A model generated the notes under the pieces. It saw only the letters and a program-made list of their open reading frames with translations, did not search any database and had not been told where the DNA came from. 64,000 nt of DNA from Chiloscyllium plagiosum (Eukaryota): contig NC_057718.1 of the NCBI RefSeq assembly GCF_004010195.1, positions 71,085,790-71,149,789 of the forward strand, given 5' to 3'. A program made the translations under genes and the position numbers. Numbering within the stretch: position 1 is the stretch's first letter; each line of letters opens with the position of its first letter. Below are positions 8,036-64,000 of this stretch, in pieces.

Positions 8036-11000
8036 TTCTGTGCACTGGATTGGTAAGGTAACTAGTTTTTTTTACTTTTTATTTTTTTAATGGTCTCTGT
8101 GGGAATTTAGAATAGTGGGAATGGAGTTAGAGCAGTTGAATGTTCCTCCTGCAAAATGTAGGAGGCAAGGGTAACCACGAGTGACCCTGCTGACTTTATC
8201 TGCCGGAAGTGCACCCTAACCTGCTGGAGGTGGAGGAGGTTTATTGAGAGGAGTTATAGGGAGGTAGTCACAGGTGCAAGAAAAAGGTTGACAATCAGGG
8301 GATGGAAATGGAACCAGCAGACAGTGCAGGGAACCCCTGTGGTCATTCCCCTCAATAAGAAGTATATCATTTTGGATACTGTTGGATGGGGGGGAAACGA
8401 CTTACCGGGGGTAAGCCATGGGGTACAGGTCTCTGGCACAGTGTCTGTCCCTGTTGCTCAGAAGGGAAGTGGGGAGAGAAGCAGAGCATTATTCACTGGG
8501 GACTCCACAGTTGGGGGGGAACAGATAGGAGATTCTGTGGGAACAAGAGAGACTCACAGTTGGTGTGTCACCACCTAGCTGCCAGGGTTCGTGATGTCTT
8601 GGATTGTGTTTTCAGGATCCTTGAGGGAGAGGGGGAGTAGCCCCAAGTCGTGGTCCACATAGACACTAAGGGCATAGGTAGGAAAAGGGATGGGGATTTC
8701 TGGCAGAAATTCAGGAAGCCAGAGTGGAAGCTTAAAGATAGAACAGAGTTGTTATCTCTGATTTGTTGCCTATGCCACGAACTAGCGAGGCTAGGAATAG
8801 GGATAGAAAGCAGTTGAACACGTGGCCGCAGGGATGATACAGGGATAATTGGGGCTCATCCTGGGGTAGGTGGGACTTCTACAAACAGGATGGTCTACAC
8901 CTGAACCAGAGGGGTACCAACATCCTAGGGGCGAACGTTGATAATGCTCTTCAGGAGGGTTTAAACTAATTCAGCAGGGGGATGGGAACCTAAATCGTAG
9001 TTCCAATGTTCAGCAGTTTGAGAGCAGTGAGGTCAAAAATAAGATTTCAAGGTCACAAAAGTGCACCAGCAAGCAGGAAGATGGTTTGAAGTTCATCAAC
9101 TTCAATGCTAGGAGCATCCGGAATAATTTGGATGAACTTGCAGCATGGGTTGGTATCTGGGACTTCAATGTTGTGGCCTTTTCAGAGACATGGATAGAGC
9201 AGGGACAGGAATGGCTGATGCAGGTTTTGGGACCTAGATGTTTCAGTAACAACAGTAACAATGGTGTGGCTTAGTTAGTCAAGGACAATTTTACGGTGGC
9301 AGAAAGGACGTTTGAGGTACGTCTACTCAGGTAGTATAAGCTGAGGTTAGAAACAGGAAAGGACAGGCCACTCTGTTGGGAGTTTTGTATAGGCCTCCGA
9401 ATAGTTACAGAGATGGTAGTTGTTATGGGGGACTTTAACTTTCCAAACATTGATGGGAATACTGTTTATAGAGTATTTTAGATGGGTTCGTTTTTGTCCA
9501 ATGTGTGCAGGAGGGTTTCCTAACACAGTATGTAGGCAAGCCAGCAAGGGACAAGGCCACATTGGATTTGGTACTGAGTAATTGGTGTTAGATTTGGAGG
9601 TAGATGAGCACTTTGGTGATAGTAACCACAATTCGGTTATGTTTATTTTAGCACTAGAAAGGGATAGGTATACACCACAGGGCAAGAGTTATTGCTGGTG
9701 GAAAGACAATTATGATGCAATTGGGCAAGATTTAGGAGGCACACGAGGGGGAAGGAAATTGCAGGTGATGGGCACAATTGAAATGTGGAGCTTATTCAAG
9801 GAACAGCTACTGCATGTCCTTGATAAGTATGTACCTGTCAGACAGGAAAGAAGAGGTCGAGCGAAGGAGCGATGGTTTACTAAAGAAGTTGAATTTCTTG
9901 TCAAGACGAAGAAGAAAGCTTATGTTAGGATGAGACATGAAGGCTCAGTTAGGCAATTGAGAGTTACAAATTAGCCAGGAAAGACCGAAAGAGAAAGCTA
10001 AGAAGATCCATGAGAAGTCCTTGGCAGATAGGATCAAGGAAAACCCTAAAGCTTTCTATAGGTATGTCAGGAATAAAAGAATGACAAGAGTAAGATTAGG
10101 GTCAATCAAGTACAGTAGTGGGAAGTTGTGCGTGGAGTCCGAGGAGATAGGAGAAAGAAGGCTAAATGAATATTTTTCGTGAGTATTCACACTTGAAAAA
10201 TACAATGTTGTCGCGGAAAATACTGAGATACAGACTACTAGACTAAACAGGATTGAGGTTCACAAGGAAGAGGTGTTAGCAATTTTGGAAAGTGCGAAAA
10301 TACATAAGTCCTCTGGGCTAGATGGGAGTTACTCTTGGATTCTCTGGGAAGCCAGGAAGGAGATTGCAGAGCCTTTGACTTTGATCTTTATGTCATTGCC
10401 TACAGGAATAGTGCCAGAAGAATGGAGGACAGCAAGTGTTGCCCCCTTGTTCAAGAAGGGGAGTAGACAAGCGAGCCTTACTTTGGATGTGGGTAAAGTG
10501 TTAGTAAAGGTTATAAGAGATATGATTTGTAATCATCTAGAGAGGAGTAAGTTGATTAGGGATAGTCAATTTGCAGATGACACTAAGGTCAGCGGAGTTG
10601 TGGATAGTGCCGAAGGATTTTGCAGGTTACAAAGGGACACAGATAAATTGCAGAGCTGGGCTGAGAGGTGGTAAATAGAGTTTAGAACATAGAACATTAT
10701 AGTGCAGTATAGGCCCTTCGGCCCTCGGTGTTACACTGACCGGTGGAACCAATCTGAAGGAGAAAGTGAGGTCTGCAGATGCTGGAGATCAGAGCTCAAA
10801 AATGTGTTGCTGGAAAAGCGCAGCAGGTCAGGCAGCATCCAGGGAACAGGAGAATCGACGTTTCGGGCATAAGCCCGAAGAAGGGCTTATGCCCAAAACG
10901 TCGATTCTCCTGTTCCCTGGATGCTGCCTGACCTGCTGCGCTTTTCCAGCAACACATTTTCAGAACCAATCTGAAGCCCAGCTAACCTATGCTATTCCAT

Positions 11001-11659
11001 TTGCATCCAGATGTCATGGTAAGATTCTTGGTAGTATAGATGAGCAGAGAGATCTCGTTATCCAGGTACACATATCCCTGAAAGTTGCCACCCAGGTTGA
11101 TGGGGTTTGTTAAGAAGGCATACGGTGTGTTAGCTTTACTTGGTAGAGGGATTAAGTTTGAGAGCTGCAAGGTCATGTTATATCTGTACAAAATTCTGGT
11201 GCTGCCACGCTTGAAGTATTGTGTGCAGTTCTGGTCACCACATTATAGGAAAGATGTGGAAGGTTTGGAAAGGGTTCAGAGGAGATTTACTAGGAAGTTG
11301 CCTGGTATGGAGCAAAGGTCTAATGAGGAAAGGCTGAGGGACTTGAGGCTGTTTTCATTAGAGAGAAGGTTGAGAGGTGCCTTAATTGAGACATATAAGA
11401 TAATCGGAGGATTAGATAAGGTTAGATATAGGACAGATGTTAGAGCAGTTTCTTTACTCACGTGACATGGTAGGGGTGTGGCATGCCCCACCTGTAACAC
11501 TAGTAGACTCTCCAACTTTTAGGGTATTTAAATTATCATTGAATAAACATATGGATGAAAATGGAATAGTGTAGGATAGATGGGCTTCAGATTGGTTCCA
11601 CAGGTCGATGCAACATCAAGGGCCCAAGGGCCTGTACTGCGCTGGAATGTTCTATGTTA
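8036..11659 (+). mobile_element. Near full-length decayed CR1 LINE (ORF1 Zn-finger/esterase, ORF2 EN-RT) inserted in Gypsy gag
   Basis: ORF1 has CxxC..CxxC and a GDS esterase motif (ALFTGDST). ORF2 has FNARSIRN, FSETW, DSNHN and FADDTK. ttctatgtt tail; taaag on both sides (8031-8035 and 11660-11664). Internal deletions. Confidence 0.9.
10760..10962 (-). mobile_element. Fold-back Penelope-like mini-insertion 1
   Basis: Inverted arms of ~80 bp; 14-bp TSD gaaccaatctgaag (10746-10759 and 10963-10976). Confidence 0.9.
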
Positions 11660-12027: not shown

Positions 12028-12572
12028 GATAAGAAACAAAAACTGCAGCTGCTGGAATCCAAAGTACTCAAACAGGAGGTTGGAAGAACACACAGCAAGC
12101 CAGGCAGCATTCGGGGTTGCACAAGTCAATGTTTCAAGTATAACCCTTCTACAGGACGGGATGCGGGGGTAGAGGGAGCTACAGATAAAGAGGTGGGATG
12201 GGATGGGGTGGGGAGAGGAGCAGGTAGTGAGTACAATCTAGTTAGTCGATGGTGTAAGACAAGGCGTAGGTCCATCACCTTCTGCCTGGGCAGCCTACAG
12301 CCCTGAGTACTTAACATTAAGTTCTCGAATTTCAAATAACCTTCCTAACCATCCCCCGGCTACCTTTCCAGTCCTTTCTCCTCCCTTCCATTCAACCTAC
12401 TGACCCTTCTTTCCAGCCACTGACCAGATTCATCCCTCCCATCAACCAACTAGGTCATACCCACTACCTGTGTTCACCTATCACTACCTCACCATTCTTT
12501 TGCTCTCCCCACCATACCCTGCAACCCCCTTTATCTGAATCACCCCCTACCCCTAGATCTAGTCCTGAAGAA
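12028..12572. mobile_element. Older Penelope-like insertion with inverted segments inside Gypsy gag
   Basis: PLE-type terminus aaactgcag.tgctggaat, a FCLGSLQP remnant, and an end at a cctgaagaa core. Confidence 0.65.
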
Positions 12573-12654
12573 ATTGGCTAAACAAATGAATTGGCCAGAG
12601 ACTGCATGGGTAATGTTAATTCAGACCAAGTTGGTAGGCAGGGCTAGTGAGGCA

Positions 12655-12839
12655 AGATTAGAGTGGTGCTGGAAAAGCACAGCAGGTCAACAGCATCTGA
12701 GGAGCAGGAAAATCAACCTATTGGGCAAAAGCCCTTCATCAGGATTCTTAATGAAGGGCTTTTGCCTGAAACATCGCTTTTCCAGCACCACTCTAATCTT
12801 GACTCTAATCTCCAGCATCTGCAGTACCCACTTCTTCCT
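12655..12839 (+). mobile_element. Fold-back Penelope-like mini-insertion 2 (related subfamily)
   Basis: Inverted arms agattagagtggtgctggaaaag / cttttccagcaccactctaatct; 15-bp TSD aggg(c/a)tagtgaggca (12640-12654 and 12840-12854). Confidence 0.85.
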
Positions 12840-15800
12840 AGGGATAGTGAGGCATTTGCAATGCTGTTAAAGGAGGTGTCAGAAGAATTAGTAAAAAAGA
12901 CTATTTTGAATGCCTACAATTGGTACTAGAAGCATATAGACAATAGTTCAGAAGTGTAAGTAAGGAACCAGGTCAGACTTAAATTGAGTTGGAAAGAATT
13001 AAACAGAGCAACTTCAATAGATGGAAGAGAGTACTAAAGATAAAGAACTCATGAGGCTCTTAGAGATATTGTTCTGGAAGAGTTTAAAAATTCACTTCCA
13101 TAAGTGATAAGAACTCATGTGGAGGAACAGAAAGTTCTAACAGCGAGAAGAGCCGCAGAGATGGCAGATGTATATGCATTAATGCATAAATCAACATCTA
13201 GCTTCCAACAGCAATTTCATTGCATGAGGGATAGAAATTGGGAAAGAGGGAGATTCTTCAATGAGAAATAAAAATTAGATCACATTAGGAACAGCTTTTC
13301 ACAGGTGAGAAACGAATCCCCAGAGGGTGGAAAATAGGTGAAAGACATCAAATGTTTTCACTGCAATAGAGTGGGACACATGAGGTCACAGTGCTGATAG
13401 TTTAAGAAAGGCACTGGGAAAAAGGATTTGCTAAAAGAGGCTAAACCAATGACATTACTGGTAACTAGTAGGAAATCCTAAGAGAAGTCAAGGAGCTGCA
13501 GGAGAGTGCACAGCCTGGATAATAAGAGAGTGCCAAATCTTTACAAAGAATTCACATGTGGGGGTAAGGTTTACTCAGGAAGAATGGGAGAGAAGGTTAA
13601 GATGTCAAAAGATTGAGAGATAAGGGAGCTATTCAGTCTCTAATACAGAGATGAAAGTATTTGCACACCTGGGACAATCTACAGGATAAATGGAGAGAGG
13701 TTTAGCATTTCTTCGTATAAGATAAGGTTACAAAGTCCAATCAAGACTGGGGAAGTGACAGTGGGAGCGATTGAAAGAGTGTCTATTCCAGGAATAGTTT
13801 GTTCTTGGAAACAACCCAGCAGGATCAAAGTTGGGAGTGATGCCGCTTGTGGTGGAGAAACTGAAAGAAAGCCAGGGAACTAATAAGTTAAGAGAAAAAT
13901 ATCCTGGAACATTTCCAAACTGTGTGGTAACAAAATTCCACAGTTATAAGTTAAAGCAAGAAGGAAAAAAATCAAAGAGAAAGACAAAGGATTTGAGGTC
14001 CAGTTAGCTGACACCCTGTTTGAGGAAATGGTAAAGGGAAAACCAAAGCAGGTAGAGGATCAGACAGAAGGGTTTAGTTCGAAAAATTAATGGAGTTACA
14101 GCAAAAAGATGAGACAATAAAAGACTTGTATCATAAAGCCGACACAGCAAAGGAATCAGAGCGTATTCCCCAGTATTATTATCTCAAGGATAGAATCCGA
14201 AATCAAAAATGGAGACCTCGGCAGGTTAGTACAGAGGAAAAATAGGTGGAAGTGCGCCAGATTGTGTAGCATACAAACAGGAAGTATTATGGGAGTACAT
14301 GAATTACCTGTAGGAGGTCAACTAGGAGTGAGGAAAGCTCAGACGAAGATACAAAAGCATTTCTATTGGCCTGAATTACACAAGGTTATGATTGAATTTT
14401 ATCATACCTGTCATAAAGGTCAAATGGTAGGAAAGCCATAGGCAGTAATAAAACTGCCTTTGGATAGGGAACAGGAGAAACAGCTACTAGTTACTGCACC
14501 TCAGAGTGAGGAATCAAATCCAGAAGATTTGGATTTTGATATGCCTCAGAGTAAACTGACTAATAGGTATGGAGAGGATAGTAAGCTGTTTGTTTCAGAA
14601 TCAGAGAACTGATTTGAAAGGCTTGTTGCAGTGATGAGGACATGTGTAGTAATAGAATGGGGAGGACTAATATAATACATTGATGTAGGGAATGCTGTTC
14701 TGAAAAGACAACACCCCTACATGCTTAATCGTCCCAAAACAGCACAGGTACAAAAGAAAGTGGAAGCGATGTTCCAAGAAGACATCATCGAACTGGGTCA
14801 AAGCAAGTGCAGCTTGCCAACTGTGTTGGTTCCAAAGCCTGACGGTACTCAATGGTTCTCCGTGGATTTTCGGAAGGTCAATGCCGTAACTCCATCGGCC
14901 TCATACCCAACTGCACGCTGGAAGACTATATAGAAAATGTTGAACAAGCCACTTCCATCACCAAATTGGACTTACTGCGTGGTTACTGGCAAGTTTCCTT
15001 GTTGAAGACAGTGAAAGAATTTTCTGCGTTTGTAACCCCAAATGGGCTATATCAATTTAAAGTAATGCCCTTTGGAATGAAGAACATACCAGCCACATTT
15101 CAAACACTTTTGTAGAGAATTGTGGCAGGATTAACCAATTGTGCCATTTACACAGATAACTTAGGGACTGGGAACAGACATTCGAAGAAAGATCACATGG
15201 TGTATCTGGCAGAAGCCTTTGAAAAACTGTAGGAGGCAAAACTGGTTATAAATTTAGCAAAAACTGAATTCGTAAAGGCAGAAGTGACGTCCTTGGGACA
15301 CAACATCGTTCATGGGAGGATGACCCCGAGGAACACAAAGATGAAGGCCATCGATAAATTTCCAAGACCATCCTCGAACAAACAGGTGCTTCAATTTTTG
15401 GGACTGAGCAGATTCTACTGGAGGTTGGTACCACTGATAGATTTACTAAAAAAGAACATGGACTTTCAGTGGAGAGAACAATGCCAGGAAGCATTTGAGA
15501 ATTTAAAAGCTGTGTTAAACACCACACCAGTTTTAGCAACACTAAATTTCTTAAAATCCTTTAAAGTCGCAATTGATGCCAGTGATGTAGGGGTTAATTA
15601 ATAGTTATGTTAATGCAGGACGATGATGGTGGAATTGAAAGGCCAATTGGTTATTTCTCAAAGAAACTCAATATCCACCAGAGAAAATACTCCACCATTG
15701 AAAAAGCGTTATTGAGTTTGGCACTGGCCTTACAACATTTTAATATTTAGGTTATGAAAAATATATCAGAGATGTAGTTTCCGTGGACCACAAACCTCTC

Positions 15801-17023: not shown

Positions 17024-17199
17024 CCCCTGAAACCCTTCCTATTTGTGTACCCATCCAAATGCCTTTTAAATATTGTAATTGTACCAGCCTCCACCACTTC
17101 CTCTGGCAGCTTATTCCATACACACACCACCCTGTAAGTTGCCCCTTAGGTTCCTTTCAAAAACCAAACAAGTTAATCTAGCTTTTGGTCCTCCAGTCA

Positions 17200-18260
17200 T
17201 CACAAAATTTTCTAGTTATTGATTTACTCATCCAGAACATTGTCACCAACTTTGATGTCATGGTTTCTGATAAAACCACTACTCTCTCTCATTCTAGCAG
17301 TTCACCCAGTCATCTCCACTTCCACCATTGACATAATTCAAAAACAGTGTTGCCATGTCAATGCTGACATCACCAAGCCCTATATCACCACCTCCATCCT
17401 TTTTGACTCCTCCACTGTTGGTATATTATCACAACGATTACGAGATATCCAATACTGGACAACCAAAAGTTTCTTTCAATTAAATATTAGGATGAGTGAA
17501 TTCAGTTTTTAGTTCCCACTCTAAATTACGTTCCTTAACTACGAACATCAACCCTCTCTCTGGCAACAGCCTGAAATGATGTTGGCATCATATTCCATAC
17601 AGCCTCATACTCATACCATTAGCAAGATTGTCTATTTCCACCTTTGTAGCATTGTCTGATTTTGCTTTTTTGCTGTTGAAATCCTCATTCATGTTTTCAT
17701 TACCTCAAGACTTGACAAGTGTCTAAAACATCATTACTGAAGAAATGGAAGATGAATGGGCCTTGGAAACTATCATGCAGTGATGTCCTGCAATTGAGAT
17801 GACCGATGTCCAGCAACTGCAACCATCCTCCTTGGTGCTAGGTATAACTCCAATCAGCAGAGAGGGTCCCCATCTACCGATTCCCATCAACTTTAGTTTT
17901 ATTAGGGTTTCCTGGTACCAGTTCTGAAGAAGGGTCACTGGATCTGAAATATTAATTCTGCTTTCTGTCCATAGATGCTACCAGACCTGCTGAGTTTTTC
18001 CAGCAACTTCTGTTTTTGACCATGGTACCTCATTTGCTCAAATGCAATCACAACATCAAGAACAGTTATGCTTACCTAATCTCTAAAACACAGCTCTTTT
18101 GTCCACTTTTGAACCAAAGCTATAATAAGATCAGAAGCTGAATAGCCCTAGCAGAATCCAGTTGAGGGTCAGTGAGCAGGTTACTGCCAATCAAACATGA
18201 ATTGATAGCATTGTTGGATCTGATGGATTAGTAATTGGCTAGATTGAACTTGTCCATTAA
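17200..18260. mobile_element. Old LINE RT remnants (L2-like on plus, second LINE on minus) with a short PLE hammerhead-end insertion at 17920-18020
   Basis: Degenerate YADDTQLY/SRLD-like coding. The motif ctgaagaagggtcactggatctgaaa is flanked by c(c/a)tggtacc repeats. Confidence 0.5.
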
Positions 18261-20320: not shown

Positions 20321-20344
20321 ACAATGGTAAACTCAGGCAACGAC

Positions 20345-20847: not shown

Positions 20848-20902
20848 CGGGGGAAGAGGACGGGGAGGAGGACGGAGAGGCGGGGAGGAGGACGGAGAGG
20901 CG

Positions 20903-23900
20903 GGGGCGGGCGTGCGACGAAGAGGAGGGGCGGGCGTGCGACGAAGAGGAGGGGCGGGCGTGCGACGAAGAGGAGGGGCGGGCGTGCGACGAAGAGGAGG
21001 GGCGGGCGTGCGACGAAGAGGAGGGGCGGGCGTGCGACGAAGAGGAGGGGCGGGCGTGCGACGAAGAGGAGGGGCGGGCGTGCGACGAAGAGGAGGGGCG
21101 GGCGTGCGACGAAGAGGAGGGGCGGGCGTGCGACGAAGAGGAGGGGCGGGCGTGCGACGAAGAGGAGGGGCGGGCGTGCGACGAAGAGGAGGGGCGGGCG
21201 TGCGACGAAGAGGAGGGGCGGGCGTGCGACGAAGAGGAGGGGCGGGCGTGCGACGAAGAGGAGGGGCGGGCGTGCGACGAAGAGGAGGGGCGGGCGTGCG
21301 ACGAAGAGGAGGGGCGGGCGTGCGACGAAGAGGAGGGGCGGGCGTGCGACGAAGAGGAGGGGCGGGCGTGCGACGAAGAGGAGGGGCGGGCGTGCGACGA
21401 AGAGGAGGGGCGGGCGTGCGACGAAGAGGAGGGGCGGGCGTGCGACGAAGAGGAGGGGCGGGCGTGCGACGAAGAGGAGGGGCGGGCGTGCGACGAAGAG
21501 GAGGGGCGGGCGTGCGACGAAGAGGAGGGGCGGGCGTGCGACGAAGAGGAGGGGCGGGCGTGCGACGAAGAGGAGGGGCGGGCGTGCGACGAAGAGGAGG
21601 GGCGGGCGTGCGACGAAGAGGAGGGGCGGGCGTGCGACGAAGAGGAGGGGCGGGCGTGCGACGAAGAGGAGGGGCGGGCGTGCGACGAAGAGGAGGGGCG
21701 GGCGTGCGACGAAGAGGAGGGGCGGGCGTGCGACGAAGAGGAGGGGCGGGCGTGCGACGAAGAGGAGGGGCGGGCGTGCGACGAAGAGGAGGGGCGGGCG
21801 TGCGACGAAGAGGAGGGGCGGGCGTGCGACGAAGAGGAGGGGCGGGCGTGCGACGAAGAGGAGGGGCGGGCGTGCGACGAAGAGGAGGGGCGGGCGTGCG
21901 ACGAAGAGGAGGGGCGGGCGTGCGACGAAGAGGAGGGGCGGGCGTGCGACGAAGAGGAGGGGCGGGCGTGCGACGAAGAGGAGGGGCGGGCGTGCGACGA
22001 AGAGGAGGGGCGGGCGTGCGACGAAGAGGAGGGGCGGGCGTGCGACGAAGAGGAGGGGCGGGCGTGCGACGAAGAGGAGGGGCGGGCGTGCGACGAAGAG
22101 GAGGGGCGGGCGTGCGACGAAGAGGAGGGGCGGGCGTGCGACGAAGAGGAGGGGCGGGCGTGCGACGAAGAGGAGGGGCGGGCGTGCGACGAAGAGGAGG
22201 GGCGGGCGTGCGACGAAGAGGAGGGGCGGGCGTGCGACGAAGAGGAGGGGCGGGCGTGCGACGAAGAGGAGGGGCGGGCGTGCGACGAAGAGGAGGGGCG
22301 GGCGTGCGACGAAGAGGAGGGGCGGGCGTGCGACGAAGAGGAGGGGCGGGCGTGCGACGAAGAGGAGGGGCGGGCGTGCGACGAAGAGGAGGGGCGGGCG
22401 TGCGACGAAGAGGAGGGGCGGGCGTGCGACGAAGAGGAGGGGCGGGCGTGCGACGAAGAGGAGGGGCGGGCGTGCGACGAAGAGGAGGGGCGGGCGTGCG
22501 ACGAAGAGGAGGGGCGGGCGTGCGACGAAGAGGAGGGGCGGGCGTGCGACGAAGAGGAGGGGCGGGCGTGCGACGAAGAGGAGGGGCGGGCGTGCGACGA
22601 AGAGGAGGGGCGGGCGTGCGACGAAGAGGAGGGGCGGGCGTGCGACGAAGAGGAGGGGCGGGCGTGCGACGAAGAGGAGGGGCGGGCGTGCGACGAAGAG
22701 GAGGGGCGGGCGTGCGACGAAGAGGAGGGGCGGGCGTGCGACGAAGAGGAGGGGCGGGCGTGCGACGAAGAGGAGGGGCGGGCGTGCGACGAAGAGGAGG
22801 GGCGGGCGTGCGACGAAGAGGAGGGGCGGGCGTGCGACGAAGAGGAGGGGCGGGCGTGCGACGAAGAGGAGGGGCGGGCGTGCGACGAAGAGGAGGGGCG
22901 GGCGTGCGACGAAGAGGAGGGGCGGGCGTGCGACGAAGAGGAGGGGCGGGCGTGCGACGAAGAGGAGGGGCGGGCGTGCGACGAAGAGGAGGGGCGGGCG
23001 TGCGACGAAGAGGAGGGGCGGGCGTGCGACGAAGAGGAGGGGCGGGCGTGCGACGAAGAGGAGGGGCGGGCGTGCGACGAAGAGGAGGGGCGGGCGTGCG
23101 ACGAAGAGGAGGGGCGGGCGTGCGACGAAGAGGAGGGGCGGGCGTGCGACGAAGAGGAGGGGCGGGCGTGCGACGAAGAGGAGGGGCGGGCGTGCGACGA
23201 AGAGGAGGGGCGGGCGTGCGACGAAGAGGAGGGGCGGGCGTGCGACGAAGAGGAGGGGCGGGCGTGCGACGAAGAGGAGGGGCGGGCGTGCGACGAAGAG
23301 GAGGGGCGGGCGTGCGACGAAGAGGAGGGGCGGGCGTGCGACGAAGAGGAGGGGCGGGCGTGCGACGAAGAGGAGGGGCGGGCGTGCGACGAAGAGGAGG
23401 GGCGGGCGTGCGACGAAGAGGAGGGGCGGGCGTGCGACGAAGAGGAGGGGCGGGCGTGCGACGAAGAGGAGGGGCGGGCGTGCGACGAAGAGGAGGGGCG
23501 GGCGTGCGACGAAGAGGAGGGGCGGGCGTGCGACGAAGAGGAGGGGCGGGCGTGCGACGAAGAGGAGGGGCGGGCGTGCGACGAAGAGGAGGGGCGGGCG
23601 TGCGACGAAGAGGAGGGGCGGGCGTGCGACGAAGAGGAGGGGCGGGCGTGCGACGAAGAGGAGGGGCGGGCGTGCGACGAAGAGGAGGGGCGGGCGTGCG
23701 ACGAAGAGGAGGGGCGGGCGTGCGACGAAGAGGAGGGGCGGGCGTGCGACGAAGAGGAGGGGCGGGCGTGCGACGAAGAGGAGGGGCGGGCGTGCGACGA
23801 AGAGGAGGGGCGGGCGTGCGACGAAGAGGAGGGGCGGGCGTGCGACGAAGAGGAGGGGCGGGCGTGCGACGAAGAGGAGGGGCGGGCGTGCGACGAAGAG

Positions 23901-26900
23901 GAGGGGCGGGCGTGCGACGAAGAGGAGGGGCGGGCGTGCGACGAAGAGGAGGGGCGGGCGTGCGACGAAGAGGAGGGGCGGGCGTGCGACGAAGAGGAGG
24001 GGCGGGCGTGCGACGAAGAGGAGGGGCGGGCGTGCGACGAAGAGGAGGGGCGGGCGTGCGACGAAGAGGAGGGGCGGGCGTGCGACGAAGAGGAGGGGCG
24101 GGCGTGCGACGAAGAGGAGGGGCGGGCGTGCGACGAAGAGGAGGGGCGGGCGTGCGACGAAGAGGAGGGGCGGGCGTGCGACGAAGAGGAGGGGCGGGCG
24201 TGCGACGAAGAGGAGGGGCGGGCGTGCGACGAAGAGGAGGGGCGGGCGTGCGACGAAGAGGAGGGGCGGGCGTGCGACGAAGAGGAGGGGCGGGCGTGCG
24301 ACGAAGAGGAGGGGCGGGCGTGCGACGAAGAGGAGGGGCGGGCGTGCGACGAAGAGGAGGGGCGGGCGTGCGACGAAGAGGAGGGGCGGGCGTGCGACGA
24401 AGAGGAGGGGCGGGCGTGCGACGAAGAGGAGGGGCGGGCGTGCGACGAAGAGGAGGGGCGGGCGTGCGACGAAGAGGAGGGGCGGGCGTGCGACGAAGAG
24501 GAGGGGCGGGCGTGCGACGAAGAGGAGGGGCGGGCGTGCGACGAAGAGGAGGGGCGGGCGTGCGACGAAGAGGAGGGGCGGGCGTGCGACGAAGAGGAGG
24601 GGCGGGCGTGCGACGAAGAGGAGGGGCGGGCGTGCGACGAAGAGGAGGGGCGGGCGTGCGACGAAGAGGAGGGGCGGGCGTGCGACGAAGAGGAGGGGCG
24701 GGCGTGCGACGAAGAGGAGGGGCGGGCGTGCGACGAAGAGGAGGGGCGGGCGTGCGACGAAGAGGAGGGGCGGGCGTGCGACGAAGAGGAGGGGCGGGCG
24801 TGCGACGAAGAGGAGGGGCGGGCGTGCGACGAAGAGGAGGGGCGGGCGTGCGACGAAGAGGAGGGGCGGGCGTGCGACGAAGAGGAGGGGCGGGCGTGCG
24901 ACGAAGAGGAGGGGCGGGCGTGCGACGAAGAGGAGGGGCGGGCGTGCGACGAAGAGGAGGGGCGGGCGTGCGACGAAGAGGAGGGGCGGGCGTGCGACGA
25001 AGAGGAGGGGCGGGCGTGCGACGAAGAGGAGGGGCGGGCGTGCGACGAAGAGGAGGGGCGGGCGTGCGACGAAGAGGAGGGGCGGGCGTGCGACGAAGAG
25101 GAGGGGCGGGCGTGCGACGAAGAGGAGGGGCGGGCGTGCGACGAAGAGGAGGGGCGGGCGTGCGACGAAGAGGAGGGGCGGGCGTGCGACGAAGAGGAGG
25201 GGCGGGCGTGCGACGAAGAGGAGGGGCGGGCGTGCGACGAAGAGGAGGGGCGGGCGTGCGACGAAGAGGAGGGGCGGGCGTGCGACGAAGAGGAGGGGCG
25301 GGCGTGCGACGAAGAGGAGGGGCGGGCGTGCGACGAAGAGGAGGGGCGGGCGTGCGACGAAGAGGAGGGGCGGGCGTGCGACGAAGAGGAGGGGCGGGCG
25401 TGCGACGAAGAGGAGGGGCGGGCGTGCGACGAAGAGGAGGGGCGGGCGTGCGACGAAGAGGAGGGGCGGGCGTGCGACGAAGAGGAGGGGCGGGCGTGCG
25501 ACGAAGAGGAGGGGCGGGCGTGCGACGAAGAGGAGGGGCGGGCGTGCGACGAAGAGGAGGGGCGGGCGTGCGACGAAGAGGAGGGGCGGGCGTGCGACGA
25601 AGAGGAGGGGCGGGCGTGCGACGAAGAGGAGGGGCGGGCGTGCGACGAAGAGGAGGGGCGGGCGTGCGACGAAGAGGAGGGGCGGGCGTGCGACGAAGAG
25701 GAGGGGCGGGCGTGCGACGAAGAGGAGGGGCGGGCGTGCGACGAAGAGGAGGGGCGGGCGTGCGACGAAGAGGAGGGGCGGGCGTGCGACGAAGAGGAGG
25801 GGCGGGCGTGCGACGAAGAGGAGGGGCGGGCGTGCGACGAAGAGGAGGGGCGGGCGTGCGACGAAGAGGAGGGGCGGGCGTGCGACGAAGAGGAGGGGCG
25901 GGCGTGCGACGAAGAGGAGGGGCGGGCGTGCGACGAAGAGGAGGGGCGGGCGTGCGACGAAGAGGAGGGGCGGGCGTGCGACGAAGAGGAGGGGCGGGCG
26001 TGCGACGAAGAGGAGGGGCGGGCGTGCGACGAAGAGGAGGGGCGGGCGTGCGACGAAGAGGAGGGGCGGGCGTGCGACGAAGAGGAGGGGCGGGCGTGCG
26101 ACGAAGAGGAGGGGCGGGCGTGCGACGAAGAGGAGGGGCGGGCGTGCGACGAAGAGGAGGGGCGGGCGTGCGACGAAGAGGAGGGGCGGGCGTGCGACGA
26201 AGAGGAGGGGCGGGCGTGCGACGAAGAGGAGGGGCGGGCGTGCGACGAAGAGGAGGGGCGGGCGTGCGACGAAGAGGAGGGGCGGGCGTGCGACGAAGAG
26301 GAGGGGCGGGCGTGCGACGAAGAGGAGGGGCGGGCGTGCGACGAAGAGGAGGGGCGGGCGTGCGACGAAGAGGAGGGGCGGGCGTGCGACGAAGAGGAGG
26401 GGCGGGCGTGCGACGAAGAGGAGGGGCGGGCGTGCGACGAAGAGGAGGGGCGGGCGTGCGACGAAGAGGAGGGGCGGGCGTGCGACGAAGAGGAGGGGCG
26501 GGCGTGCGACGAAGAGGAGGGGCGGGCGTGCGACGAAGAGGAGGGGCGGGCGTGCGACGAAGAGGAGGGGCGGGCGTGCGACGAAGAGGAGGGGCGGGCG
26601 TGCGACGAAGAGGAGGGGCGGGCGTGCGACGAAGAGGAGGGGCGGGCGTGCGACGAAGAGGAGGGGCGGGCGTGCGACGAAGAGGAGGGGCGGGCGTGCG
26701 ACGAAGAGGAGGGGCGGGCGTGCGACGAAGAGGAGGGGCGGGCGTGCGACGAAGAGGAGGGGCGGGCGTGCGACGAAGAGGAGGGGCGGGCGTGCGACGA
26801 AGAGGAGGGGCGGGCGTGCGACGAAGAGGAGGGGCGGGCGTGCGACGAAGAGGAGGGGCGGGCGTGCGACGAAGAGGAGGGGCGGGCGTGCGACGAAGAG

Positions 26901-27319
26901 GAGGGGCGGGCGTGCGACGAAGAGGAGGGGCGGGCGTGCGACGAAGAGGAGGGGCGGGCGTGCGACGAAGAGGAGGGGCGGGCGTGCGACGAAGAGGAGG
27001 GGCGGGCGTGCGACGAAGAGGAGGGGCGGGCGTGCGACGAAGAGGAGGGGCGGGCGTGCGACGAAGAGGAGGGGCGGGCGTGCGACGAAGAGGAGGGGCG
27101 GGCGTGCGACGAAGAGGAGGGGCGGGCGTGCGACGAAGAGGAGGGGCGGGCGTGCGACGAAGAGGAGGGGCGGGCGTGCGACGAAGAGGAGGGGCGGGCG
27201 TGCGACGAAGAGGAGGGGCGGGCGTGCGACGAAGAGGAGGGGCGGGCGTGCGACGAAGAGGAGGGGCGGGCGTGCGACGAAGAGGAGGGGCGGGCGTGCG
27301 ACGAAGAGGAGGGGCGGGC
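20903..27319 (+). repeat. 24-bp tandem array (GGGGCGGGCGTGCGACGAAGAGGA) x267 + 9 bp
   Basis: Full units span 20903-27310 (6408 bp = 267 x 24) with no variant unit seen. Preceded by a 20-bp doublet cggggaggaggacggagagg (20861-20900). Confidence 0.99.
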
Positions 27320-27346: not shown

Positions 27347-28507
27347 ACTGTGAGGTGTTGCATTTTGGAAAAGCAAATCAGAGCAGGACTTATACACTTA
27401 TTGAGTGAGGTCCTGGGGAGATTTGCTGAACAGATTGCAGGTTCATCGTTCCTTCAAAGTAGAGTTGCAGGATGTGAACATAGAAGGTATAGTGAGTAAG
27501 TTTGCAGATGACACTAAAATTGGAGGTGTACTGGACAGCAAAGGTTACCTCAGATTATAATGGGATCTTGTACAGATGGGCCAATGGGCTGAGGAATGGC
27601 AGATGGAGTTTAATTTGGATGACTGTGAGGTGTTGCATTTTGGAAAAGCAAATCAGAGCAGGACTTATACACTTAATGGGTGAGATCCTGGGGAGATTTG
27701 CTGAACAAAGAGACCTTGGATTGCAGGTTCATCTTTCCTTGAAAGTAGAGTCGCAGTATAGTGAAGACGGCATTTTGTATGCTTTCCTTTACTGGTCAGA
27801 GCATTGAGTATCGGAGTTGGGAGGTCATGTTGTGGCTTGCAGGTTATTGGTTAGGCCACTGTTGGAATATTGTATGCAATTAGTGAAGACGGCATTTTGT
27901 ATGCTTTCCTTTACTGGTCAGAGCATTGAGTATCGGAGTTGGGAGATCATGTTGTGGCTGTGCAGGTTATTAGTTAGGCCACTGTTGGAATATTGTATGC
28001 AATTTTGGTCTCCTTCCTATCATACTGATGTTGTGAAACTTGAAAGGGTTCAGAAAAGATTTACAAGGATGTTGCCAGGGTTGGAGGATTTGAGCTGTAA
28101 GGGAGAGGTTGAATAGGCTGGGGCTATGTTCCCTGGAGCATCAGAGGCTGAGCGGTGACTTTGGAGAGGTATGTAAAATCATATGGGGCACAGATACGAT
28201 AAACAGACAAGGTCTTTTCCCTGGAGTGGGGGAGTCCAGTACTAGAGGGCATAGGTTCATGAAGAGAGGGAAAAGATATAAAAGGGAACTAAGGGGCAAC
28301 GTTTTCATGCAGAGGGTGGTGCATGTATGGAATACGCTGCCACAGGAAGTGGTGGAGGCTGGTACCATTGAAAGGCATCTGGATGAGTATCCGAATAGAA
28401 AAGGTGTCGAGGGATATGTGCCAACTAGATCAGGTTAGGATATCTGGTCGGCATGGACGATTTGGACCAAATGGTCTGTTTCCGTGTTGTACATCTCTGA
28501 CTCTATG
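27347..28507 (+). mobile_element. CR1 LINE 3' fragment with internal duplications
   Basis: KFADDTK, LEYCMQFWSP and a ctctgactctatga tail. 27347-27470 repeats at 27622-27756, and 27759-27880 repeats at 27881-28003. Confidence 0.9.
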
Positions 28508-28509
28508 AA

Positions 28510-29078
28510 CTCATCTACTATGTCTATTGCTCTTGATGTGGTCTTCTCTACATTGGGGAGACAGGATGCCAACTCGTGGAATGTTTCAAAGAACATCTCT
28601 GAGACACAAGCACCAAACAACCCCACTGCTCTGTGGCCAACAACTCTCCCTCCCAGTACCTGCCTGTCAAGGATATGCAAGTCTTGGCCTCCTCCACCGC
28701 CAAATTGTAGTCACCTGATACCTGGAGAAGAACCCCTCATCTTCTGCCTTGGGACCCTCCAACCACACAGCATCAATGTCAATTTCACCAGTTTCCTCAT
28801 CTCCCCGCCACCCACCTCATCACAGATCTAATCCTCCAACTTTGCACCACCATCTTGAACTGCCCATCTGTCCATCTTCTTTCCTACCTATCCACTCCAC
28901 CTTCCACTCTGACATATCACCATCACCTCCCATCTGCANNNNNNNNNNNNNNNNNNNNNNNNNNNAGCCCCCTGCCCCCAACCCCACATTTCTGACGAAG
29001 GGCTTATGCCTGAAACATCCATTCTCCTGCGCCTCGGATGCTGCCTGTCCTGCTGTGCTTTTCCAGCACCACACTTTT
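28510..29078 (+). mobile_element. Penelope-like element 3' fragment (GIY-YIG plus hammerhead-like motif 28992-29019)
   Basis: CGLLYIGETG remnant, LIFCLGTLQPHSINVNF, and ctgacgaagggcttatgcctgaaacatc. Confidence 0.85.
28939..28965. other. Assembly gap (27 N)
   Basis: Run of n characters. Confidence 1.
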
Positions 29079-29315
29079 TGACATATGGTATAGGGGCCAA
29101 CATTTTACTATTGGTAAAGGATTGGTTCGTTGATGGGAAACAGAGTTGACATTAAAGGATATCTTTCCTCGTTGGCAATTTGTAACTAGTGGAATGCCAC
29201 AGGGGTCAGTGCTGGGACCTCAACTATTTTCTATCCATTCTTCCACCACATTGGATGAACAGAACTGAAGAAGGATATTGGATCTGAAATGTTAACTCTG
29301 CTTTCTTTCCACAGA

Positions 29316-42459: not shown

Positions 42460-42924
42460 TTAAAGATCCATGCACATCAGTCATTGGAAGCAGGAATGCA
42501 AGTATGCCAAGCAGTTAGGAAGGCAATTGGTATGCTAGCTTTCATTGCAAGAGCTTTTGAATACAGGAACAAAGAAGTCTTAGTAAAGTAAACAGGGCCT
42601 TGATGAAACCACATCTAGAGTACTGCATGCGGCTTTGGTCACCTTATCCAAGGAAAGATATTTTTTCCAGAGACAGTTTTATTTCCAAGAGTTTCAGCAT
42701 GTTTCAATCTTCCTCTCAGTTACAGTATCATCCTCATGAATCTTTCTTACACCCTCAGTCCACGAGATCAAAAACTGGTCATACTACTCCAAGATTCTAT
42801 GCAAACTTGACACAACTTCTTTACTTTTCTATCCTAACCCTTGTGAACAGCGTGTCTTTTTAAAATGGTAGTCTGAAATGAGAAAGAACTCATTTCAGGA
42901 CACAAGCAGTCTTTAGCAAATTGA

Positions 42925-48212: not shown

Positions 48213-48304
48213 GTGATTTGGAGCACCTGATGGAGGAGCGTCACTCCGAAAGCTAATGTGCTTCCAATTCAACCTGTTGGACTATAACCTGGTGTTGTGA
48301 GATT
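48213..48304 (+). mobile_element. Short insertion of the second hammerhead-bearing family
   Basis: 14-bp TSD tttaaaataaaatc (48199-48212 and 48305-48318); ctgatggaggagcgtcactccgaaagcta. Confidence 0.8.
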
Positions 48305-49298
48305 TTTAAAATAAAATCATTCATGACAAGGAAAGCATTTATTATTCATCCCTTCTAGTGTTGTCACTCTTATGGCTCTTTGACATATGCAAGTCTGTTC
48401 TTTTGTCAATTCAATTAATTGAATTATGAATCGTTGTGGGTTTGGAGTTTATTTAAGGTCAGACAGAATAAGGAAAGGAAAGAACAAAAAATTGCTGGAT
48501 ATCACAGGGCAGGCAGCATCTATGAAGAGAAAGCAAGCTAAACTTGACCCTTCATCAGAGCCATCCAAGCAGATTTGCTTTCCTAAAAGATATTAGACAA
48601 CTTTATTGAACCATTTTTGGATTAGCTTTGTAAAACTGCATTCAAATCAGTCTTTGTCTTTCTATATAAGTTTAAACCACCTCCACTTCACTGTCAACTC
48701 TCAAAATTAGGATTGTTTTCCAAGTTCCTACTGTCACAGTCTACCATGATTATGCTGCCGTTGAGTGTACAGATCCTGTCTTTTGAATTTTTGTGCTTTT
48801 TAAACCATGGACTGAAAGGAGAAAGACTATTTTAAAACCAACGTTTTGAATAGATGGTTGCATGGTTTTAAAAGCAAGTAACCAGACACCCATGGAAAGC
48901 ATGGAAATAGCTATTTGAGCAAGCAGTGACTCAAGTGATTGCAGATGAATGGGTGCAATGGGGTTCTGCACATATGCTGCTGGGTGGCAACAAGTAGTTG
49001 ATTTGTCTACGGACAAATGATCATTTGTCAATTAAAAAGATGTTTTGCTGGCCAACCCAGCCATGGGATATCCAAGGAAATAACTAGGGAGAAGGTAGAA
49101 CCACTCAAGGATAAGAGGGAACTTATGGTTGGAGGATATGGGCAAGGTCCGAAACGAGTACTTTATCAATATTCACCCAAAAGAAGGATATGGAGGATAG
49201 TGAGATTTGTGTGGAGTATGTTAATATGCTACAGCATTTTGAGATCAAGAAAGAAGTGGGTCTCTTGAAGAGCATTAAGTCTCCATGGTCCCAATGGT

Positions 49299-49515
49299 GA
49301 GCTGAAAATGTGTTGCTGTAAAAGCGCAGCAGGTCAGGCAGCATCCAAGGAACAGGAGAATCAACGTTTCGGGCATAAGCCCTTCTTCAGGAATGGGCTT
49401 ATGCCCGAAACGTAGATTCTCCTGTTCCCTGGATACTGCCTGACCTGCTGCGCTTTTCCAGCAACACATTTTCAGCTCTGATCTCCAGCATCTGCAGACC
49501 TCACTTTCTCCTCAG
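49299..49515 (+). mobile_element. Fold-back Penelope-like mini-insertion 3
   Basis: Inverted arms; 12-bp TSD ggtcccaatggt (49287-49298 and 49516-49527). Hammerhead core on the minus strand at 49363-49390. Confidence 0.9.
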
Positions 49516-50676
49516 GGTCCCAATGGTATCTACCTCAGGTTTCTGAGAGGCGAGATGAGATTGCTAGGGCCTTGATCAAAAATCTTTGTATTCTCACTAG
49601 CCATTGGAGAAGTCCTGCAGGACTGGCAAATAGTTAATGTTGTTCCACTATTCATGTAGGGAAATAGGGATAATCCAGGAAATTATTGACCAGTTACTCT
49701 CACATCAGTGGTTGGCAAGCTATAAGAGAGAATTCTTAGGAATAGAATTTAAGTGCATTTGGAAAAGCATGGCCTAATTAGGAACAGCCAGCATGGCTGT
49801 GTGGGATAGGTCATGTCTCACTAATATGATTGAATTTTTTTTTGAGGTGGTGACAATGGTGATCAATGAAAGTAGGGCAGTGGATGTTGTCTACATGGAT
49901 TTTAGAAGGCTTTCAACAAGGTCCCTGATGGTAGGCTCATCCAGAAGATTTAAGATGCATGGGATCCACGGTGACTTACTTGGAGTTAGAATTGGTTTGC
50001 CCATAGAAGACAAACAGTAGTGGTGAAAGGGTGGCAGACAGTAAGGACTGCAAATGCTGGAAGTCAGAGACAATAGATGTGAATCTGGAAGAGCACAATA
50101 GGTCAAACAGCACCAGAGAAGCAGGAAAGTCAGTATTTCGGGCAGGATCCCTATCAGGACCTCTGCAGTTCGTAATTTATATAAATGACTTGGATGGAAA
50201 TGTAGATGGGTGGGTAAGTAAGTTTGCAGATGACACAAAGATCTATGGAGTTGTGAATTATGTAGAAGGTTGTCAAAGTAAACAGCAGGGTATGGGTCAG
50301 TTGCAGATGTGGGCAGAGAAATGGCAGATGGAGTTTAATCTGGTGTGCGTAAACTTCTGAACTTTGGGAAATCAAATATTACAGGAAAGTATACATTAAT
50401 GACAGGACCCTGAACAACATTGATGCACAGAGGGATCTTGAGGTTCAAGTCCATAACTCCCTGAAAATGATCGTGCAAGTAAATAGGGTGTCAAAGGAGG
50501 CATATGGCATGCTTGCCTTTATTGATCTGGGAATTGATGTACAAGAGTCAGCATGTCATGTTGCAGTTTGATAAGACTTTGATTAGGTCACACTTCGAGT
50601 ATTGTGTTCAATGCTGGTTGCCACATTACAGGAAGGATGTGGAGGATTTGGAGAGGGTGAAAGCTTTACAAGGATA

Positions 50677-57420: not shown

Positions 57421-58119
57421 GAAAAGGGAGAAAGTGAGGACTGCAGATCCTGGAAATCAGAGTCGAAGAGTGTGGTCTTAAAAAGTACAACCAGTCAGGC
57501 AGCTTCTGAGGAGCAGGAGAATCGACGTTTCAAGCATAAGCTCTTCATCAGGAATGAGGCTTGTGGCCCAAGGGGCTGAGGGATAAATAGGAGGGGGTGG
57601 GCTGGAGGTGAAGGTTATAAGTTGAAGAGGAGGGTGGTGCAGACAGGTGGGAAGGAAGATGGACAGGTAGGACAGATCAAGAGAGCAGGGCCAAGTTGGA
57701 AGGTTGGATCTGGAATAAGGTGGGAGGAGGAGAAATGAGGAAACTGGTGAAATCCACATTGATCCTGTGTGGTTGGAGTGTTGCAAGAAGAAAGATGAGG
57801 CGTTCTTCCTCCAGGCACCGGGTGGCTAGAGTTTGCGGGTGGAAGTGGTCCAGGACTTGCATGTCCTTGGCGGGATGGAGTGGAGAGGGGAGTTAAAGTG
57901 TTCAGCCACAGGGCAGCGGGGTTGTGGAGTGTGTGCCCCAGAGATGTTCTCTCAAACGTTCCGCAAGTTGGCATCCTGTCTCTTAATGTAGAGGAGACCA
58001 CACAGAGCAACAGACACAGTAGATGTCGGATGTGGAAGGATCCTTTGGGGCCTTGGATGGAGGTTTTGAGGTGGCAGGGAAAGGTACCGGGAGTGGAAGG
58101 TGGGCTGTTGGTGTACATG

Positions 58120-58337
58120 GGGAGAAAGTGAGGTCTGCAGATGCTGGAGATCAGAGCTGAAAATGTGTTGCTGGAACAGCGCAGCAGGTCAGGCAGCATC
58201 CAGGGAACAGGAGAATCGACGTTTCGGGCATAAGCCCTGAAGATTCCTGAAGAAGGGCTTATGCCCGAAACGTCGATTCTCCTGTTCCCTGGATGCTGCC
58301 TGACCTGCTGCGCTGTTCCAGCAACACATTTTCAGCT
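58120..58337 (-). mobile_element. Fold-back Penelope-like mini-insertion 4 (perfect arms)
   Basis: 15-bp TSD ctgttggtgtacatg (58105-58119 and 58338-58352). Intact hammerhead core on the plus strand at 58247-58274. Confidence 0.92.
58247..58274 (+). ncRNA. Minimal type I hammerhead ribozyme motif (PLE type)
   Basis: CUGAAGA-A-GGGC-UUAU-GCCC-GAAA-C-GUC has the conserved core boxes, stem II and GUC triplet. Stems I and III are vestigial, as described for PLE hammerheads. Activity not shown. Confidence 0.65.
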
Positions 58338-58464
58338 CTGTTGGTGTACATGTACCTAACATGAGAGTCACGGAGGGAATGGTCTCTCCAGAATGCAGAT
58401 AAGAGGTGGGGAGGGAAATATATCCCTGGTGGTGGGGATCTGTTCTATGTGGCGGAAGAGAAAA

Positions 58465-62014: not shown

Positions 62015-64000
62015 TGAAGGGGATGGGCACAAGTGAAATGTGGAGCTTATTCAAGGAATAGCTACTGCAGAGTACGTACCTGGCAGGCAGGGAGAAAAGT
62101 TGTCGAATGCAGGAGCCGTGGTTTACTAAGGAAGTTGAAACTCTTGTCAAGAGGAAGAAGACGACTTATGTTAGGATAAGATATGATGGCTCAGTTAGAG
62201 TGCTTGAGAGTTACAGGTTAGCCAGGAAAGACCTAAAGAGAAAGCTAAAATCATCCAGGAAGGGACATGAGAAATTGTCGTCAGATAGGATCAAGTAAAA
62301 CCCTAAGGTTTTCTATAGGTACATCAGGAATAAAAGAATGACTAGAGTAAGATTACAGCCAGTCAAGGACAATAGTAGGAAGTTGTGCGTGACATCAGAG
62401 GAGATAGGCAAAGTACTAAATGAGTATTTTTCATCAGTATTCACACGAGAAAAAGACAATGTTATCAAGGAGAATACGGAGAAACAGGCTACTTGGCTAG
62501 ATGGGATTAAGGTTCACAAGGAGGAGGTGTTATCAATTCTAGAAAGTGTAAAAATAGATTAGTCCCCTGGGCTAAATGGGATTTATCCTAGGATTCTCTG
62601 AGAAGCCAGGGAGGAGATTGCAGAGCCTTTGGCTTTGATCTTTATGTCATCATTCTTTACAGGAATAATGCCAGAAAACAGAAGACAGCAAATGCTGTTC
62701 CCTTGTTCAATAAGGGGAGTAGAGTCAACCCTGGTAATTATAGGCCAGTGAGCCTTACATTGATTGTGGGTAAAGTGTTGGAAAGGGTTGTAAGAGATAG
62801 GATTTATAACCATTAAGAAAGGAATAAGTTGATTTAGGGATAGTCAACACAGTTTTGTGAAGGGTAGATTGTGCCTCACAAACCTTATTGAGTTCTATGA
62901 GAAGGTAACCAAACAGATGAATGAGGGCAAAACAGTTGATGTGGTATGTATGGATTTCAGTAAGGTGTTTGATAAGGTTCCCCATGGTAGACTATTGCAC
63001 AAAATACATGGGATTGAGGGTGAGTTAGCCGTTTGGATCAGAAATTGGCTAGCTGAAAGACAGAGGCTGGTGGTTGATGGGAAATGTCAATCCTGGAGTT
63101 CAGTTACCAGTGGTGTACCACAAGTGTTTTGAGTCCACTGCCATTTGTCATTTTTATAAAATGAGGGCATGAGGGTTTGTAAACTTGCAGATGACACTAA
63201 GGTCAGTAGAGTTGTGGATAGTGTCGAAGGATATTCTAGATTAAGGAGGGACACAGATAAGCTGCAGAGCTGGGCTGAGGAGGCAAATGGAATTTAATGC
63301 GGACAAGTGTGAGGTGATTCACTTTGGTAGGAGTAACAGGAACGCACAGTACTGGGCTAATGGTAAGATTCTTCATAGCATAGATGAGCAGAGAGATCTC
63401 AGTGTCCAGTTATGTAGATCCTTGAAAATTGCCACCCAGGTTGATCAACTAGGAGAAAGTAAGGACTGCAGATGCTGGAGATCAGAGCTGAAAAATGTTT
63501 AACTGGAAAAGCGCAGCAGGTCAGGCAGCAACCAAGGAGCAAGAGAATCGACGTTTCGGGTATAAGCCCTTCCTGAAGAAGGGCTAATGCCCGAAACGTC
63601 GATTCTCCTGTTCCTTGGATGCTGCCTGACCTGCTGCGCTTTTCCAGCAACACATTTTTCAACCCAGGTTGATCAGGTTGTTAAGGCAGCATACAGTGTA
63701 TTAGCTTTTATTGGTAGAGGGATTGAGTTTTAGAACCGTGAGGTCATGCTGCAGCTGTACAAAACTCTGGTGTGGCCACACTCGGAGTATTGCATTCAGT
63801 TCCAGTCACTGCATTATAGAAAGGATATGGAAGTTTTGGAAAGGATTCAGAGGAGATTTACTAGAATGTTGCCTGTATGGAGGGAAGGTCTTACGAGGAA
63901 AGGCTGAGGGACTCCAGGCTGTTTTCGTTAGAGAGAAGGAGTTTGAGAGGTGACTTAATTGAGACAGTGAAGATAATCAGAGGGTCAGATAGGGTGGATA
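62015..64000 (+). mobile_element. Decayed CR1 LINE ORF2 running off the window end
   Basis: PWFTKEV, RLCLTNLIEF, MDFSKVFDKVPH and GVPQ. Confidence 0.92.
63448..63661 (-). mobile_element. Fold-back Penelope-like mini-insertion 5
   Basis: 14-bp TSD acccaggttgatca (63434-63447 and 63662-63675). Hammerhead core on the plus strand at 63573-63600. Confidence 0.92.

Follow-up and report, generated by a model that had tools for sequence, protein, structure and literature searches.

Head-to-head copies of a hammerhead-bearing Penelope-like element end in a 64-kb stretch of the Chiloscyllium plagiosum genome

Five short palindromic insertions are found in a stretch of 64,000 nucleotides of the Chiloscyllium plagiosum genome (NCBI RefSeq assembly GCF_004010195.1, contig NC_057718.1, positions 71,085,790 to 71,149,789 of the forward strand; hereafter the window, with positions counted from its first nucleotide). 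Each insertion probably joins, head to head, two copies of one end of a GIY-YIG Penelope-like element (PLE), an end that bears a minimal hammerhead ribozyme motif, and such pairs are likely made anew at each site from a short template in which the ribozyme is uncut. The anatomy of the junction between the two copies points to two primers on this uncut template and not to a stop of reverse transcription set by the ribozyme.

Structure of the palindromic insertions

All five insertions have the same architecture, a head-to-head palindrome built from two back-to-back PLE end pieces and nothing else, and both arms represent the final ~95–130 nt of the element. The two arms differ by a tail of about 35–40 nt (38 nt in copy 4), so that the tail-less arm is about 95 nt and the tailed arm about 120 nt long. 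The coordinates and apex sequences agree in all five copies with those in an earlier note on this DNA, the lengths being 203, 185, 217, 218 and 214 nt. The copies and their target-site duplications (TSDs) are as follows.

Copy 1, 10760–10962: tailed arm 10760–10876 (element sense on the minus strand), 6-nt loop, tail-less arm to 10962; TSD 10746–10759 and 10963–10976.
Copy 2 (more diverged subfamily), 12655–12839: tail-less arm first, tailed arm second, both reaching the hammerhead 5′ edge; TSD 12640–12654 and 12840–12854.
Copy 3, 49299–49515: tail-less arm 49299–49395 (sense on the minus strand), tailed arm ending at 49511 and followed by 4 extra bases; TSD 49287–49298 and 49516–49527.
Copy 4, 58120–58337: tailed arm 58120–58238, 4 extra bases, tail-less arm 58243–58337; TSD 58105–58119 and 58338–58352.
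Copy 5, 63448–63661: tailed arm followed by the tail-less arm, the two meeting in 3-nt microhomology; TSD 63434–63447 and 63662–63675.

The inverted arms of copies 1, 3, 4 and 5 span 78, 84, 87 and 84 nt with complementarity of 99, 95, 100 and 90%, respectively, and those of copy 2 fall into two pieces, one of 44 nt (75%) and one of 30 nt (97%). The claim that one arm always stops short holds in that the tail is confined to one arm in five of five copies, but the tailed arm of copy 2 has also suffered an internal deletion of ~38 nt. The outer end of the tail-less arm shifts by a few bases between copies. A TSD of 12–15 bp flanks every copy as claimed, in keeping with the retroposition that the earlier note inferred, being exact in copies 1, 3, 4 and 5 (14, 12, 15 and 14 bp) and 15 bp long with one mismatch in copy 2; as a control, an exact word of at least 10 nt common to the flanking 40-mers was found in 6 of 2000 random 205-nt intervals. 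Together the five palindromes account for 1037 nt, or 1.6% of the window, at a density of about one per 13 kb. Copy 4, which is inserted into an older fragment of the long element, has a predicted fold of −183 kcal/mol (z = −24).

Origin from the end of a GIY-YIG element

The Penelope-like origin is supported by the colinearity of the arms with the 3′ ends of longer GIY-YIG fragments in the window. These fragments, together with a related single-arm stub, are listed below.

57426–58119, minus strand: longer 5′-truncated fragment with a broken GIY-YIG end, 3′ untranslated region (UTR), hammerhead (core starts at 57551) and tailed terminus at 57426.
28507–29082, plus strand: longer fragment with a GIY-YIG core, 3′ UTR (27 N), hammerhead (core starts at 28992) and tail-less end near 29082.
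4370–4902, minus strand: longer decayed fragment whose tailed terminus is at 4370 and whose endonuclease end is broken.
50036–50160, minus strand: decayed single-arm stub with the tail present, starting at about the same hammerhead 5′ edge as the palindromes.

The earlier note had the same tailed terminus capping the fragments at 4369, 28510 and 57427. This is the case at 4369 and 57427, whereas 28510 is the truncated end of the open reading frame (ORF) and the element itself ends without a tail near 29082. No clear TSD flanks the single-arm stubs or the long fragments.

Endonuclease-bearing PLEs are described as having, at the end of the ORF, a GIY-YIG endonuclease domain in which two cysteines stand between GIY and YIG and two histidines come later, the CCHH pattern (PMC8557442). 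The segment 28507–28638 carries two cysteines between its IY and YIG motifs and one later histidine (IY..C..C..YIG), and the second histidine of the pattern is present in the 4369 and 57426 fragments. The region upstream of GIY-YIG, where a linker zinc finger would tell Neptune from Poseidon, is frameshifted and decayed. Two frameshifted readings gave no match in Pfam, and the 28-nt arm pattern gave 0 matches in metagenome and viral contigs. The assignment to PLEs is a putative one, made on motif and architecture.

The hammerhead motif

The form of the minimal hammerheads of metazoan pseudo-long terminal repeats (pLTRs) has been defined (PMC4209133). A minimal-hammerhead descriptor (CUGANGA, a bulge, helix II, GAAA, a palindromic 15.2/16.2 and UH) is matched at eight places in the window, namely in copies 3, 4 and 5 and at five others, compared with 0 in 40 Markov replicates. 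The claim that every apex carries the hammerhead core therefore stands for copies 3, 4 and 5, in which the complete core passes the descriptor, but not for copies 1 and 2: the core of copy 1 lacks its first two bases and that of copy 2 is decayed. The complete core lies always in the tail-less arm. Within the element, the hammerhead opens the end piece and is on the ORF strand. Rfam did not back the identification, giving no hammerhead match at E up to 1 and only eight sub-threshold microRNA matches due to hairpins.

58243–58278, plus strand: minimal type I hammerhead motif in the copy 4 tail-less arm, with no helix III loop and a predicted cut between 58274 and 58275.
Parts of this motif, plus strand: helix I 5′ strand 58243–58246, core 58247–58253, bulged A 58254, helix II 58255–58266, GAAAC 58267–58271.
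63573–63600, plus strand: minimal hammerhead core in the copy 5 tail-less arm, by the descriptor.
49363–49390, minus strand: minimal hammerhead core in the copy 3 tail-less arm, by the descriptor.

In folding calculations, the pairing probability of helix II drops from 0.96–1.00 in a single arm to 0.00 in the palindrome, and that of helix I is below 0.08 in the monomer. The ribozyme of a finished palindrome is predicted to be buried in a duplex of ~85 bp, and because of this burial the palindrome is likely to be a dead end and not a master.

Junction anatomy

The junctions of copies 1, 3, 4 and 5 were parsed against the copy 4 tail-less arm, and copy 2 was read by eye. The apex is located at the first base of helix I, 20–32 nt upstream of the predicted cut. 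Past helix II, the tailed arm extends by 0, 0, 1 and 3 nt and the tail-less arm by 6, 12, 12 and 11 nt in copies 1, 3, 4 and 5, respectively. The junction is blunt in copies 1 and 3, contains four extra bases in copy 4, shows 3-nt microhomology in copy 5 and is near-symmetric in copy 2. Single-arm stubs start at about the same hammerhead edge.

Both arms cross the predicted cut in five of five copies, so the template is not the cut product, and "ribozyme-delimited", the term used in the earlier note, cannot refer to cleavage. Reverse transcription that begins at the full terminus, stops and folds back predicts a loop on the tailed arm. However, the loop continues the tail-less arm in copies 1, 3, 4 and 5, and a second priming event is therefore needed. 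Because the tail-less arm holds bases that the tailed arm lacks in four of four asymmetric copies, a single tail-primed fold-back is ruled out there. What survives of the proposed fold-back at the ribozyme hairpin is that the constant point is the hammerhead 5′ edge and that a snap-back of the tail-less complementary DNA (cDNA) is energetically possible.

Variants in the two arms do not tell one template from two. Private changes between the arms of copy 5 number 7 versus 1, and in copies 3 and 5 the arms have different bases at common polymorphic sites. In copy 4 the two arms carry a base found in only 0.6–7.5% of family depth, and a minority loop II variant is common to both arms of copy 2. 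In a young subfamily, the consensus-like arms are 1–4 of 77 nt apart and the apexes differ in four of four copies.

Related arrangements occur elsewhere in the window. A second hammerhead-like family at 39362–39880 and 48224–48309 has different helix II and helix III letters and is composite with unique spacers. A decayed inverted pair at 12147–12572 contains an endonuclease end and a 3′ UTR-like segment, and its outer ends lie at a CUGANGA-like motif and not at the tail. Single-arm stubs of more distant hammerhead families are found at 17918–18012, 6565–6690 and 29260–29320, and all three match the descriptor; no clear TSD was seen in the two of these three that were tested.

The family in public sequencing runs

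The suggestion that such insertions are very abundant is supported: the family is present in tens of thousands of contigs per DNA run, under three species labels. Of the 24 public runs listed, 20, which carry four species labels, contain at least half of the words of copy 4. Four public runs, three of DNA type and one of RNA, were compared with 58226–58375. The three DNA-type runs yielded 29,262, 56,512 and 42,241 family contigs, and the RNA run 2,240 family reads out of 12,955,460.

The filtered table of joints lists 15 of 17 joints and is blind to which arm is tailed. Five of the 15 listed joints are strand switches, and one end falls at 58239–58244 in four of these five. In 18 of the 26 listed strand-switch contigs the other end is at 58254 or 58255 and the joint lacks microhomology; such joints come from each of the three DNA runs and also from 18 RNA reads. 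The earlier note placed the apex always at the hammerhead. This is true of the five insertions in the window, but in the remaining 8 of the 26 listed contigs the second end is at 58275, 58290 or 58301 and the second arm ends 20–46 nt further downstream. The constant element of the junction is the 5′ edge of helix I; the second arm prefers the helix II edge and is not bound to it. Loose ends before 58243 are mixed (agreement of 0.35–0.37 in DNA), and their consensus resembles the true upstream UTR, indicating that some copies run on upstream.

A further type of joint connects 58274–58285 to 58242–58244 in 10 of the 12 rows listed (of 64). Because most of these joints keep 2–4 bases beyond the cut, they are not clean cleavage ends; they are likely short direct re-copies of the ribozyme core, and one row was cross-checked.

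Family RNA reads are found in both directions. Between 58243 and 58337, A>G changes are seen at 14 places in the RNA reads compared with 1–2 in the DNA runs, and four of the five A>G sites listed show a skew in direction. Enrichment in RNA and skew are likewise seen for several changes that are not of the editing type, and one T>C site has the wrong direction. Adenosine-to-inosine editing of family RNA is no more than suggested by these confounded data, in which the comparison DNA comes from other individuals.

A model of formation

The template would start at the first base of helix I, which is likely the start of transcription in the pLTR. The bases upstream of this point in the 57426 fragment would fit an initiator consensus; a bacterial promoter scan, whose model does not apply to this host, found nothing. 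In Drosophila, transcription of Penelope is reported to start inside the element (PMC2377424). An anole PLE has been reported to cleave and extend both target strands in vitro, with two internal reverse transcriptase (RT) starts that bracket the tail, and its enzyme is a predicted dimer that mainly uses uncut RNA (PMC11167929). If the enzyme active here behaves like that of the anole, it would nick the two target strands 12–15 bp apart, and two cDNAs would be primed at two internal start sites 35–40 nt apart, yielding one tail-less and one tailed arm. The tail-less copy reaches the template's 5′ end in four of five insertions, and in four of five the 5′ edge of helix II is where the tailed arm begins. 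The tail-less cDNA would then reverse direction, either through a snap-back in which a 3-bp hairpin forms next to the helix II copy or through a jump to the 3′ end of the second cDNA, and repair would seal the insertion site.

The snap-back is given slightly better than even chances. In folding calculations, the 3-bp hairpin of the cDNA end has an energy equal to that of the best fold; it yields copy 5 exactly and puts junctions at 58254–58255, and the minority variants shared by the arms of copies 2 and 4 also speak for it. The jump onto the second cDNA is credited with a little under an even chance. It is favoured by the lack of microhomology at the commonest joints, by the existence of long-loop joints, by the 7-to-1 difference between the arms of copy 5 and by the second hammerhead-like family, whose head-to-head pair at 39489–39653 has the opposite asymmetry.

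A bolder proposal, which we put forward as a long shot, is that the hammerhead acts as a pairing and positioning device and not as a cutting one. Two pLTR RNAs would dimerise via the palindromic ACGU, load onto the dimeric enzyme and prime both strands, and the helix II copy would set the turn-round. Co-folding of the dimer did not reproduce the ACGU register or helix III. If the proposal were true, the palindromes would record, in nature, a retrotransposition step that uses two templates, and in the host they would form a large source of self-folding double-stranded RNA.

Alternative explanations

That each palindrome is made anew, as the earlier note inferred, is probable, since the apexes differ in five of five copies, and in four of four of the young subfamily, and the tail-less arm does not have the same outer end in every copy. 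The same facts speak against one or a few palindromic masters whose whole-length transcripts would be retroposed and so form a non-autonomous family, with apex variety arising later or coming from several masters. Such masters would explain why two joints, 58243/58254 and 58243/58255, are met again in each of the three DNA runs and among the RNA reads, and they agree with the minority variants common to both arms of copies 4 and 2; however, these shared variants are equally expected if one RNA gives both arms, and a hairpin of −183 kcal/mol would presumably be a poor RT template. Masters are given a low probability. Still less probable is the literal model of the earlier note, in which a single cDNA primed at the full terminus would halt at the hairpin of the ribozyme or at its cut, fold back and be extended on itself to a point 30–40 nt short of the end. 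Points in its favour are that the tailed arm ends 0–3 nt from helix II in four of five copies, that the near-symmetric copy 2 is compatible with it, and that an arm of one public contig ends at about the cut site (58239/58275, with 6-nt ambiguity). Yet 6–12 nt of the tail-less arm are absent from the tailed arm in four of five copies, so that the latter cannot have served as its template, both arms cross the cut in all five, and the point at which the copy stops short is of the type published as an RT start site (PMC11167929), not a random stop.

Self-priming on an antisense template has been proposed for palindromic head-to-head PLE junctions, as in rotifer Penelope (PMC3846280), and RNA reads in both directions would suit it. 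These reads are expected anyway from read-through of dispersed copies, the commonest joints show no microhomology, and the tail is explained by what is reported in vitro, where sense RNA is copied by target priming that starts at two internal sites (PMC11167929); we give this route very little weight. A DNA-transposon miniature inverted-repeat transposable element (MITE) that merely resembles a PLE end would share the length of ~200 nt, the palindromic form and the great abundance. This identity was rejected, and its chance is close to nil: the ends are not inverted partners, as only one carries the tail, the TSDs are long and variable (12–15 bp) and not short and fixed, and the arms run colinear with GIY-YIG fragments, at the 3′ end of the latter.

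Several observations weigh against the interpretation that two-primer copying of a PLE end made the palindromes. The link to a protein is weak: for the best endonuclease piece, from the 28507 fragment, the sole Pfam match is to GIY-YIG, with an E of 0.048 that falls short of the curated cut-off, protein homologue searches and a PDB search gave no match, and no RT domain of the element was found within the 64-kb window. The loop lies on the tail-less arm in four of four asymmetric copies, a small number with a two-sided p of 0.125, and in the pair at 39489–39653 of the second family it is the tailed arm that reaches the ribozyme end. The junction of copy 3 is of the type of the commonest listed joint, seen in 12 contigs under three species labels, as a master would also give. 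The AT content of the TSDs is 50%, compared with 59% for the window, and the anole enzyme prefers AT. RNA ends show no pile-up at the cut or at helix I, where a start site is proposed, although the library was scarcely suited to reveal such a pile-up. The evidence as a whole comes from five copies and a filtered contig table.

Other features of the window

A tandem array of a 24-bp G-rich unit occupies 20891–27319, with 268 copies at 99% identity, and is open in all six frames; it may be a young satellite or an assembly artefact. On the minus strand, 41180–42514 contains an open frame of 443 amino acids with a full RVT_1 domain (E = 1e-35), among many fragments resembling long interspersed nuclear elements (LINEs). 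Copies 1 and 5 are nested in repeats related to these LINE-like fragments.

Comparison with known systems

The architecture itself is already published. Head-to-head inverted pLTRs, a one-sided tail, a TSD and a palindromic junction are described features of PLEs (PMC3846280, PMC8557442), and the statement of the earlier note that hammerheads in PLE pLTRs and inverted PLE ends are established agrees with the published record (PMC4209133, PMC3846280, PMC8557442). Inverted-pLTR insertions are reported with the same inverted copy, a one-sided tail of 30–40 nt, a TSD of variable length and a junction that lies at the pLTR 5′ end and shows a small overlap or palindrome (PMC3846280, PMC8557442). However, those described in these sources contain an ORF or captured DNA between the pLTRs and have TSDs of 8–10 bp, whereas the insertions studied here consist of two inverted ends only and have TSDs of 12–15 bp. 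They are the pLTR-only extreme of a known PLE insertion structure. Our search, which did not extend to Dfam, Repbase or subscription journals, found no literature on pLTR-only palindromes in sharks.

The closest biochemical parallel described is the anole Poseidon element PAc, in which a minimal hammerhead likewise lies upstream of two RT starts bracketing the tail, both strands are cut and extended, and uncut RNA is the main substrate (PMC11167929). In contrast, the five TSDs here show no AT bias, and the main text on PAc, in which the single use of "inverted" refers to a blocking group, does not discuss inverted products (PMC11167929). With the minimal hammerheads reported from metazoan pLTRs, the motif shares a bulged base before helix II, a G-C closing pair, the absence of a helix III loop, a palindromic 15.2–16.2 and a short helix I; those hammerheads too are mostly dispersed in truncated copies, with opposite-strand pairs 100–700 bp apart in Schistosoma (PMC4209133). 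Here, by comparison, helix II has 4 bp, the arms meet at the ribozyme and the whole core is on one arm only, the motif being known from sequence. Animal non-LTR retrozymes are similar in being non-coding, hammerhead-bearing and derived from PLE pLTRs, and they are reported in one chondrichthyan (bioRxiv 10.64898/2026.07.22.740005). According to that preprint, the units of retrozymes are repeated head to tail in tandem and each contains an intact hammerhead, whereas the insertions here are single head-to-head pairs in which the ribozyme is predicted to be buried; the window has no head-to-tail tandem hammerhead array of the retrozyme kind.

The origin of the inverted ends and tails of PLEs is still called open in the literature (PMC8557442). 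Because the products described here are abundant and short, with both ends and the junction within one read, the two-primer model becomes countable in a single genome. The palindromes would also provide ready-made duplex RNAs of ~85 bp. Precedents for editing have been reported in other vertebrates, where Penelope is heavily edited in a lizard and a palindromic repeat dominates editing in a frog (PMC5625713).

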